Source: Candidatus Babeliales bacterium | GTDB lineage: Bacteria; Babelota; Babeliae; Babelales; JBFXEV01 | Reading direction: 5' to 3' | NCBI GenBank assembly: GCA_050179755.1 | Contig: JBFXEV010000001.1 | Location: forward strand, 681,994-745,993 | Length of the DNA stretch: 64,000 nt | Shown here: in pieces, positions 17,484-59,159 of the stretch | Position numbering within the stretch: position 1 is the stretch's first letter | Layout: the number at the start of each line of letters is the position of its first letter | Notes under the pieces: model-generated | The model's database searches: none | The model's input: only the letters and a program-made list of their open reading frames with translations | What the model was told of the DNA's origin: nothing | Position numbers and translations under genes: made by a program

Positions 17484-17639
17484 GTATGCTCCTGTTTTAT
17501 ACTGTGAGATTACAGAAATGTGTGAAGAGTTTACAAGTGTTTTATAGAAATATTGGATTCTATTTTAATGCATTATAGAAGTTTGCTTACTTATTAAAAT
17601 TATTATATAGTTCCAGGGATTTTCTTTAATGTATGAATG

Positions 17640-17876
17640 CTTACGCTTCGCGCCTGTGCGGCGGGCATGAGACCTTTTGCTTCTCCAAAAGATCTCAACT
17701 AAAAGGAGCCAAGCTAAAGCTTGACCGGTCGGTAACGCCTAACCTTCCACGTATACAGCCTGCTAACGCAGCCTGTAACGAGAAAATAGGCTACCTAAAG
17801 TACTTTTACGGTAGGATTTTTAACTGACTATTTTACAATAAGTTTTCCGCCTCAAACGGCCGGCTGGGCCGACTTC
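17640..17876. repeat. GC-rich multi-hairpin intergenic element (left part of a composite repeat)
   Basis: Hairpins GAGACCTTTTG/CAAAAGATCTC, CAAGC/GCTTG, ACAGCCTGC/GCAGCCTGT, and an enclosing GTCGG/CCGAC. Confidence 0.5.
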
Positions 17877-18171
17877 ATAAACTACCCTCCTTTAAATTTA
17901 CGATTATATACCATTGTATAAGCAATGGTTTTTGTGACATTGATAGTTAAAAAATCCTGAAAAAGGGATACGTAAAGGATTCCCTCTTTTAGCTTCACTT
18001 TTTTACAGCGCACCATTGTAGCGCATTGGCACGATGAAACTTGTGGGTTTTTTGAAAATTTTAATAAAGAAGTCTGATGGAGCTGCAGCACTACTGCGCC
18101 TGAATAGGCGTGCAGTCAGGGCAAAGCGCATGGGCGTGACGAAACTCTTTATGCTTTTAGGAAATTAATAA

Positions 18172-18367
18172 AGTAGTTCTTATGCGCGCTGCGTGCATAC
18201 TTCGTCGTGAAACGACGTGAAGTATAGCGCTCAGCGATCGAGCGGAATGGTCCAGCGGAACGCTGGTGCTTTTTTGCGTCCTTTTTTTGCACAAAAAAAG
18301 GCATGCGCTGCCGCGCGTAGCGGTACCAGGGATAATGATTGTAAAATGGTAAAGCGAACTTCTACAT
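18172..18367 (+). repeat. ~195-bp structured non-coding repeat, copy A
   Basis: Closely matches 58964-59159 with compensatory changes in stems. Confidence 0.85.
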
Positions 18368-33707: not shown

Positions 33708-34634
33708 TTACTGTTCATGTTTTTCAAGTAATTGTGCAATATCAGTATGGCCTGCTTCTTGTGCAAACATGCGCGGTGTTTGGCCTTTGTTATCGTTTGT
33801 GTAAACATCTGAGCCATGCGCCAAAAGTAATTCCACAATCTCTCTGTTTCCTCCATACGATGCATAATGGAGTGGAATTCTACCGAATTTATCTTTTATA
33901 TTTACCTGAGCACCATGAGCTATAAGCAATTGTGGGGTTTCTAAATTATATTGAATATGTAACGCCGTTCGGTTAAGGTCATCTTGAGCATTCACTTTCG
34001 CACCATGAGTCAGTAGTAGTTCAGTGATTTCTACATTTCTTGCACCATGCAATGCTCTCCTGCCATCAACGTCTTTTGCGTTCACGTCAGCGCCATGGAT
34101 CAATAGTAGTTTAACTATATCTTTCCAGAAGAGGTGGGGTGAATGAGTGTGTAAGGCTGTTTTGCCATCCATATCTTTTGCATTTACATCTGCGTTATGT
34201 GCTATCAAGAAAGCAGCCATTGGTGGAGTGAATGCGTAATGGAGTGCTGTTTTGCCACGATTATCTTTGGCATTTATATCTGCACCATGCTCTAGTAATA
34301 ATTTAATGATGTTAGGGTGCCATGCCAGGTGAATTGCTGCATTTCCGTCATCATTTTTTATATTCACATTTGCACCGTGCGCTAATAATACTTTAATGAG
34401 TGATGTTTTCTCACTGCTACCCCATAATAATGAAGGATTCTTTAAAGCTTTTTTTAATAGTTCAGTTGCATCAGCACCAGCAGCTAACTTTTTCTTGATG
34501 ATGAATATTTTTACTTTGTTAATGATAGTAACAATATAGTGCTGAATGCGCGTCCATATATGTCTTGCAAAGATTATACCACCAACCAAAAGAATAAATC
34601 CTATCAAATAAATTAATGCGTTCTTCATATACAC
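33708..34634 (-). CDS. Membrane-anchored ankyrin-repeat protein
   Basis: N-terminal TM helix; about seven GKTALH..LL.HGADVNAKD repeats. Confidence 0.92.
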   Translation of the reverse strand: MYMKNALIYLIGFILLVGGIIFARHIWTRIQHYIVTIINKVKIFIIKKKLAAGADATELLKKALKNPSLLWGSSEKTSLIKVLLAHGANVNIKNDDGNAAIHLAWHPNIIKLLLEHGADINAKDNRGKTALHYAFTPPMAAFLIAHNADVNAKDMDGKTALHTHSPHLFWKDIVKLLLIHGADVNAKDVDGRRALHGARNVEITELLLTHGAKVNAQDDLNRTALHIQYNLETPQLLIAHGAQVNIKDKFGRIPLHYASYGGNREIVELLLAHGSDVYTNDNKGQTPRMFAQEAGHTDIAQLLEKHEQ

Positions 34635-58714: not shown

Positions 58715-58810
58715 GTAGAAGTTCCACTGGAGTTTTACCTGTATTATCACTGGTGCCGCTGCGCGCGGCGGCGTACGCCTTTTTTGTGCAAATAAGGGTA
58801 CAAAAAGCAC
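58715..58810 (-). repeat. Partial inverted copy of the structured repeat
   Basis: Reverse complement matches the 3' half of copies A and B, ending GGAACTTCTAC. Confidence 0.75.
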
Positions 58811-58963
58811 TTAAGGGCATGCTATCCCTTAAGAATCCCCATACCTTATCAAGTAGATTATTAAATCAACTGGGTTAAATCTCGCCGTCCATATTTTTTG
58901 GTTTCTATGCATACTATTGTGTGGGTGGATGGATATTCACTGGCTCATAATGAAAATTTTAGT

Positions 58964-59159
58964 AGTGGTTCCTCTGCGCGCTGCGTGCATACCTCGTCGT
59001 GAAACGACGTGAGGTATAGCGCTCAGCGATTGAGCGGAATGGTCCAGCAGAATGCTGGTGCTTTTTTGCGTCCTTTTTTTGCACAAAAAAAGGCATGCGC
59101 AGCCGCGCGTAGCGGCACCGGCAATAATGCTTACAAGTAATCAGCGGAACTTCTACATT
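58964..59159 (+). repeat. ~195-bp structured non-coding repeat, copy B
   Basis: Closely matches 18172-18367. Confidence 0.85.

Follow-up and report, generated by a model that had tools for sequence, protein, structure and literature searches.

The window analysed here, a stretch of 64,000 nucleotides, lies in a contig (G000:C1) of 1,525,295 bp with 39% G+C, from a Babeliales genome (G000) of the Dependentiae (TM6), which are uncultured parasites of protists. Two copies of a repeat lie between its genes; a repeat search of the window pairs positions 18172–18340 with 58964–59132 over 169 ungapped nucleotides (92% identical), and pairwise alignment carries the match on to a common end, GAACTTCTAC, at 18356–18365 in copy A and 59147–59156 in copy B. 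The repeat claimed at 18172 and 58964 in the first-pass annotation is real, and its copies occupy 18172–18365 (copy A, the subject of this study) and 58964–59156 (copy B), both on the plus strand, where the covariance model described below scores 183.7 bits for copy A (over 18179–18330) and 181.2 bits for copy B. Elsewhere in the window, tandem repeats with periods of 126–249 nt and 90–180 nt lie inside genes at 1145–1722 and 33775–34391, which by eye resemble WD40 and ankyrin repeats.

In copy A the right terminus GAACTTCTAC (18356–18365, plus strand) pairs with AGTTC at 18175–18179, so that the repeat by itself contains a short inverted repeat (AGTTC ... GAACT). The first-pass annotation had described a conserved end after a variable spacer. 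The terminus is indeed common to the copies, but the trailing ATT of the 'GAACTTCTACATT' that it had read as the end is flank rather than element, because the right flanks differ in other copies. The variable tail itself (18325–18355, plus strand) is homologous between copies and is their least conserved part; a role as guide or spacer was ruled out, the tails being merely less constrained. Coding potential was also ruled out, with stops in nearly all frames and no frame common to the copies.

Modules and composite elements

The unit of about 195 nt is a genuine repeat, but it is only a piece of a modular element of 435–890 bp with terminal inverted repeats. In G000 this piece, the R module, is present 11 times according to BLAST and a profile search (84–100% identical to copy A). 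The full element consists of a left module, L1 or L2, followed by an R module, and is bounded by GTAGAAGTT(CC) ... (GG)AACTTCTAC; L1 and L2 are unrelated to each other. Six of the 11 R modules, copy B among them, form the right half of L1+R elements of ~440 bp, in which the start of L1 is an inverted, diverged copy of the R arm, giving inverted arms of ~95 nt with the ends GTAGAAGTTCCACTG and CAGTGGAACTTCTAC (at most two mismatches). Four others, including copy A, have an L2-type left module of ~270 bp that begins with GTAGAA(G/A)TT, as L1+R elements do, and is separated from R by 130–370 nt of poorly related sequence. The remaining R module, at 1381 kb, is solitary. With the L1-type arms and L2-type blocks that lie apart from any R module, the family amounts to ~19 loci in G000, and its dispersed copies group into subfamilies.

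Composite element A (17575–18365, 791 bp, plus strand) comprises a left terminus, L2, a variable middle and R, the left terminus ATAGAAGTTTGC lying 791 nt upstream of the end of R. Its L2 module (17640–17893, plus strand) is GC-rich, hairpin-rich and unrelated in sequence to R; the block is common to the elements at 1140 kb and 784 kb of the genome, and the identity of 81–89% with two other loci, both of which also hold an R module, spans ~265–277 nt. Composite element B (58715–59156, 442 bp, plus strand; nhmmer, profile positions 1–443) is of the L1+R type and is bounded by GTAGAAGTTCCACTG ... CAGCGGAACTTCTAC, its inverted arms of ~95 nt showing 76% complementarity. The L1 arm of B (58715–58835, minus strand) is a diverged inverted copy of the arm made of hairpin, tail and terminus, and the minus strand at 58749–58915, overlapping this arm, matches the covariance model R1 at 28.5 bits.

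As a side observation, L2 (…CGACGTAGCTTGCC…GGATAAGCGAAGGCGG…) recurs beside R modules (window 17640–17893; loci L015, L012 and L018) and can also be recognised by eye in G033, a genome of another family (L048, L052). An L2-like block also immediately precedes the small GIY-YIG gene in G000 (L059), which is considered below.

A five-helix fold kept on one strand by compensatory changes

The RNAalifold consensus of 12 copies, the 11 of G000 and one from its sister genome G001, has a 4-bp closing helix, P1, around three hairpins (hp1, hp3 and hp4), followed by a fifth helix, hp5, outside P1. On the plus strand of copy A, P1 pairs GCGC at 18184–18187 with GCGC at 18305–18308 and encloses hp1, a long hairpin of GCTGCGTGCATACTTCGTCG and CGACGTGAAGTATAGCGCTCAGC (18188–18235); hp3, in which GCGGAATGGTCCAGC-GGA-ACGCTGGTGCTTTTTTGC forms a terminator-like hairpin (18242–18277; terminator-like site at 18252–18266) with a T-run that pairs back to GGAA; and hp4, the T7/A7 hairpin GTCCTTTTTTTGCACAAAAAAAGGC (18278–18302). 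hp5 is the GC hairpin GCCGC-GCGTA-GCGGT (18310–18324). The same helices lie on the plus strand of copy B at 58976–58979/59097–59100 (P1), 58980–59027 (hp1), 59034–59069 (hp3), 59070–59094 (hp4) and 59102–59116 (hp5). Folded as RNA, copy A reaches −74.4 kcal/mol in its minimum-free-energy structure, where shuffled sequences give −60.5 ± 4.0 (z = −3.45; none of 200 as stable), and the plus strand of the element gives the more stable fold in all 12 copies.

Both paired changes that had been read from the two window copies are confirmed by alignment, TAC[T]TCG..CGTGA[A]GTA in copy A becoming TAC[C]TCG..GA[G]GTA in copy B, and CCAGC[G]GAA[C]GCTGG becoming CCAGC[A]GAA[T]GCTGG; a CCTTTTTTTG/CAAAAAAAGG stem proposed with them is found in both copies. 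The CGCTC/GAGCG stem from the same source is present in both window copies as well, but it is broken in eight of the 14 family copies and compensated in none. The actual partner of CGCTC is the 5′ GCTGCGTGC strand, with which it extends hp1 as the 3′ strand; this pairing covaries, and it survives three double changes in the subfamily common to the 1468-kb copy of G000 and to G001.

Among the 12 copies, aligned with MAFFT, 95.8% of cells are paired, and 10 of the 58 pairs are changed on both sides, as are 26 cells, a cell count that overstates independent events since the copies are related and recombine. Neither double-change count is reached by any of 500 column shuffles of this alignment, and slid controls, with partners shifted by 1–3 columns, yield at most four pairs and five cells changed on both sides. 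The changes include 6 of the 19 pairs of hp1, the apical pair of hp3 (G-C in six copies and A-U in six) and a pair of hp5 that is G-C in five copies, A-U in three and C-G in three.

The search for further copies used a covariance model built from 14 of them, whose E-values are rough owing to a shortened calibration, and it finds weaker, partly rebuilt units in G000, G001, G033 and G029, in which hp3, hp4, hp5 and P1 are of other sequence and still pair. In other genomes hp4 is replaced by CAAGGTATTTTG/CAAAATACCTTG and by GCCAGCTATTTT/AAAATAGCTGGC, and in G069 by CAGGGGTGG/CCACCCCTG. When 35 units from four genomes are aligned, 45 of 48 pairs are changed on both sides and 94.9% of cells are paired, compared with 76.6% in shuffled and at most 55.8% in slid controls, pair counts that lean towards the structure because this alignment was fitted to the model. 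P1, which is invariant in the 12 close copies, covaries among the 35 units. The case for selection on a single-stranded fold, made in the first-pass annotation, holds and becomes stronger as copies are added: the R module carries a five-helix fold on one strand that is kept via compensatory changes.

Paired changes of this kind could also be produced with no selection on structure, by template switching at quasi-palindromes together with gene conversion between copies. The mixing of hairpin character states among copies, which suggests recombination, is in keeping with such an origin; the 1354-kb copy, for example, has hp5 as in the 1468-kb copy and hp1 as in copy A. So is the equality of minority G.T and A.C cells among close copies (6 and 7), from which recent changes look neutral. 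However, template switching gives perfect Watson–Crick pairs on both strands, whereas the MAFFT alignment holds 79 G.T cells against 7 A.C cells, which makes the fold strand-specific, and the replacement by other pairing sequences of whole hairpins and of P1, with strands ~120 nt apart, goes beyond local repair. We regard this origin as the least probable of the explanations weighed here.

Insertion sites, distribution and genomic context

Comparison of seven G000 loci with the sister genome G001 gives two clean empty sites, two sites occupied in both genomes and three that are without R in G001 but not alignable. A look for empty sites in relatives was among the checks named in the first-pass annotation. 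Between argS and mnmA, 58 bp in G001 correspond to 556 bp with the element in G000, both flanks of which align to one continuous G001 stretch, and upstream of grpE 23 bp correspond to 564 bp. The intergenic region of copy A holds other modules and no R in G001. Full R modules number 11 in G000 and three in G001.

Within G000 the R cores are 76–96% identical (mean 89%), and as no pair of copies exceeds 96% identity, activity is not recent. The 1468-kb copy of G000 (L006) and the 1443-kb copy of G001 (L011/L002) are 92% identical in the core, at non-orthologous loci with unrelated flanks, while orthologous coding DNA of the two genomes is 66–84% identical; this match reflects either strong constraint on a subfamily or transfer between lineages. 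No target-site duplication was found: the longest word common to both flanks averages 4.5 nt in 10 elements, and 4.7 nt when flanks are mismatched. AT stands at the end of the left flank in six of nine elements and at the start of the right flank in five of 10, and a 2-bp duplication is still compatible with the data. The intergenic DNA of G001 is too diverged to fix the element ends to the base.

Short-read contigs from three DNA runs of one study break at L2 and R modules, and summed depth in them reaches ~30 times that of the flank in the R arm (18212–18318) and 9–10 times in L2. The repeats account for the breaks that short-read assemblies of these genomes show at certain intergenic positions. 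At the copy A locus, the contigs of the three runs include none that spans the repeats, and none of the joints leaves out the element. A single joint there that 'goes back 123', seen in one run, was set aside as a repeat artefact.

The copy B site is occupied in both genomes. There, copy B and its positional orthologue in G001 are 75% identical in the core and 83% in the inner part of L1, values to be compared with 73–79% for the flanking genes, 57–58% for the intergenic flanks and 38% for the tail and terminus. This old copy in G001 has lost its termini and kept its fold, which suggests gene conversion or else selection that acted once the copy was in place, and which lends weight to the possibility that the fold works as RNA. 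The R modules would then belong to a family of structured non-coding RNAs, either cis-acting leaders or trans-acting small RNAs, that arose on the mobile repeat or was exapted from it. We consider this the main competitor of the explanation favoured below, but unlikely as the primary one. It would accommodate the persistence of the G001 core at coding-like identity after loss of the termini, the conservation of the P1 junction across four families with hairpin sequences wholly replaced yet still pairing, and the many fixed G.U pairs on one strand only, the strand that is the more stable in every one of the 12 copies.

The surroundings of the modules bear on the same possibility. All 11 R modules are intergenic, and the downstream gene runs in the direction of R in eight of them, a point in favour of RNA, though the excess is not significant. 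From their translations, the neighbours are presumably a ligase-like protein, ABC ATPases, UvrA, ClpB, Nth, ArgS, MnmA, GrpE and small exported proteins, a set with no common function on this reading. In neither window copy was a sigma-70-like promoter found within the fold or immediately before it, and the promoter-like sites that fit the downstream genes of these copies lie beyond the end of the element. The terminator-like hairpin, hp3, has a central position in the fold, and a transcript ending there would be without hp4 and the 3′ strand of P1. These observations argue against a functional transcript, as do the difference in copy number between the sister genomes given above and the distribution of the units described next.

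BLAST detects the family in three of 41 genomes, namely G000, G001 of the same genus, and one with a weak match. The covariance model finds units in four of 61 relatives at E ≤ 0.01 and, at E ≤ 1e-4, in five of the 151 genomes drawn from across the phylum, G000 being counted in each case. The positive genomes (G000, G001, G029, G033, G069, G076 and G100) represent four families of the order, and most of the Babeliales genomes searched are without units, a patchiness that again speaks against an RNA family. No Rfam family matches the repeat, which also weighs against RNA: the window as a whole gives no match at gathering score, and a permissive scan of both loci (E up to 10) gives nothing credible, the best sub-threshold match within the elements scoring 20.8 bits against a cut-off of 44. 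A literature search whose coverage lay outside subscription journals found no paper on repeats or RNAs of Dependentiae or Babeliales. With the covariance model of the repeat, a conserved single-strand fold can be traced in several families of the Babeliales.

Terminator-like sites exceed those of shuffled sequence in both regions, the copy B region having five where shuffles have 1.0 ± 0.9, and the copy A region four where shuffles have 1.1 ± 0.8. Among these sites are hp3 followed by TGCTTTTTT on the plus strand and a hairpin with a T-run in the L1 arm. The repeat might on this evidence have spread terminators or insulators, each arm presenting a GC hairpin and a T-run to incoming transcription. 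The shape of hp3 does match an intrinsic terminator in the G000 copies, but the placement does not. Only three of the 19 family loci lie between convergent genes, with nine between divergent and seven between tandem genes, which is close to the shares of these classes in intergenic length (16% convergent, 33% divergent and 51% tandem), and the upstream gene, reading in the direction of R, enters only four of the 11 R modules. The T-run after hp3 is, moreover, degenerate in the units of G001, G029 and G033. Termination as the function of the family is accordingly highly improbable in our view.

Candidate mobilising enzymes and comparison with known systems

Partners for the repeat were sought in G000 and its relatives among the families Y1_Tnp, DDE_Tnp_1, rve, DDE_3, GIY-YIG, TnpB zinc ribbon, RVT_1 and IS110. 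In G000, the rve, DDE_3, RVT_1 and IS110 families have no matches, no pair of termini brackets a transposase gene, and there are no dispersed, near-identical open reading frames. A stretch at 190–200 kb between terminus-like words was rejected as a parent element, as it holds housekeeping genes only. No R unit lies within ~1.5 kb of the IS5-family remnant described below, the two TnpB-like genes, the Y1-like gene or the six small GIY-YIG genes examined.

The candidates differ in kind. At ~456.5 kb of G000:C1 lies a truncated IS5-family remnant (L035:1483–2033, minus strand), whose DUF4096 part (82 aa) and DDE part (112 aa) are in separate but overlapping frames; its ends, GGCATGTCCTC and GAGGACATGCC, are unrelated to the repeat, and DDE_Tnp_1 has no match in G001. 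The two TnpB-like genes, at ~391.9 kb (L083) and 1,421.0 kb (L084) of G000:C1, are frames of 380 aa with 78 bits to Cas12f1-like_TNB; the two loci show no DNA similarity to each other or to the repeat family, and no such gene was found in G001, G033 or G029. Small GIY-YIG genes are present in all four unit-carrying genomes, with one in G000 and eight in G033. The G000 gene, an 89-aa frame at ~562.3 kb (L059:1150–2150, minus strand), was seen to lie directly downstream of an apparent tRNA or tmRNA 3′ end (…GGTTCGATTCCC…CCACCA).

A Y1_Tnp-like gene (63 bits, 143 aa) is present as a single copy at ~216.9–217.3 kb of G000:C1 (L033:1426–1857, minus strand) and is syntenic in G001 (L034:1465–1893, plus strand), next to genes that we take from their translations to be truA-like and acetyltransferase-like. 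Its protein has LVH where TnpA of ISDra2 has HVH and, judged by eye on the unaligned C-terminus, FLNFM, with Phe, at the position expected for the catalytic Tyr; these residues give it the appearance of a domesticated, inactive transposase. Of the 61 relatives, 16 have Y1 homologues, and these include all four genomes that carry units, a co-occurrence that is a hint and not support, since only about three independent lineages are involved. G033 also has a minimal IS200 of 572 bp in five copies (99.8–100% identical; L077, L078 and L079), with the HVH and YVRNQ motifs intact; three of the copies follow one another directly, head to tail.

Taken together, the anatomy of the elements, their copy dynamics and their patchy spread lead us to think that, on balance, the 195-nt repeat is probably the R module of a new family of non-autonomous, structure-bearing, gene-less mobile repeats akin to MITEs and REPs. 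The mobile element that the first-pass annotation had offered as one of two options, assignable to no described family, fits in these respects; its further description as structure-recognised goes beyond the findings, no enzyme that could read the fold having been found. The copies would have spread by a transposition-like process, driven by a trans-acting enzyme that is either no longer present or not recognised as such. The fold may be what the mobilisation process, or a host factor, reads on the single strand; we favour single-stranded DNA during mobilisation as its carrier, with a transcript almost as likely. Copies that lose the fold would stop propagating, so that the surviving lineages would show paired changes. 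It counts against the mobile reading that a closed multi-helix junction exceeds, to our knowledge, the needs of any known transposase.

A wider interpretation, put forward tentatively and with considerable doubt, is that the units represent an undescribed, order-wide class in the Dependentiae, a multi-helix structure of ~150 nt whose reading is confined to one strand and whose copying is the work of an enzyme outside the recognised transposase families, or else a functional RNA riding on mobile DNA. The question raised is what reads a junction fold of 150 nt on a mobile repeat for which there is no matching transposase. If the fold works as single-stranded DNA, it points to an unrecognised mobilising enzyme; if it works as RNA, it would be among the few structured RNAs known in the phylum.

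Bacterial MITEs that fold into hairpins include the Correia/NEMIS elements of Neisseria, the enterobacterial ERIC, the pneumococcal RUP, the modular BOX elements and the QMITEs of Coxiella. Like MITEs, the Babeliales repeat is small, gene-less, multi-copy and intergenic, has inverted termini and is present or absent between relatives, and like BOX elements it is built from modules. Two features of MITEs were not found for it, a target-site duplication and a parent insertion sequence sharing its ends. Moreover, its conserved part is the internal five-helix fold and not the termini, and from one family to another the sequence of this fold changes but the fold persists. The distinguishing feature of the repeat is this internal, single-strand junction fold that has outlasted divergence at the level of families.

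IS200/IS605 elements have no terminal inverted repeats, need only one small hairpin per end, and show a fixed target word at the left end, a strong lagging-strand bias and no target-site duplication. No such duplication was found for the repeat either, and its strand-specific fold could be read as single-stranded DNA, but it has inverted termini, the left flank ends in AT in six of nine elements, and its fold lies on the lagging-strand template in seven of the 11 R modules by hand count, which is not significant. The clean GC skew of G000:C1 has its cumulative minimum at ~510 kb and its maximum at ~1,250 kb, which were taken as origin and terminus. The hairpins of the active 572-bp IS200 of G033 are unrelated to those of the repeat.

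The REP/RAYT system differs in its enzyme, as G000 and G001 have no intact RAYT and their sole Y1-family gene has LVH for HUH and is not flanked by repeats. In Di Nocera et al. (2013, PMC3733652), REPs are single stem-loops of 20–40 bp with a GTAG tag next to the stem; GTAG-tagged REPs occur singly or as inverted 'HH' dimers with the tags outside, their subfamilies differ by complementary changes in the stem, and their frequent G-T pairs are read as a hint of RNA function. GTAG REPs and REPINs share with the Babeliales repeat an outer tag starting with GTAG, inverted pairs, complementary stem variants and G-T pairs. The R unit, at 150–195 nt, is 5–10 times larger than a REP, has five helices and carries its tag ~35 nt from the nearest hairpin, hp5. 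In either form of the wider interpretation put forward above, the repeat would be a mobile unit defined by structure, of a size well beyond that of a REP, and one selected even once the copy is immobile.
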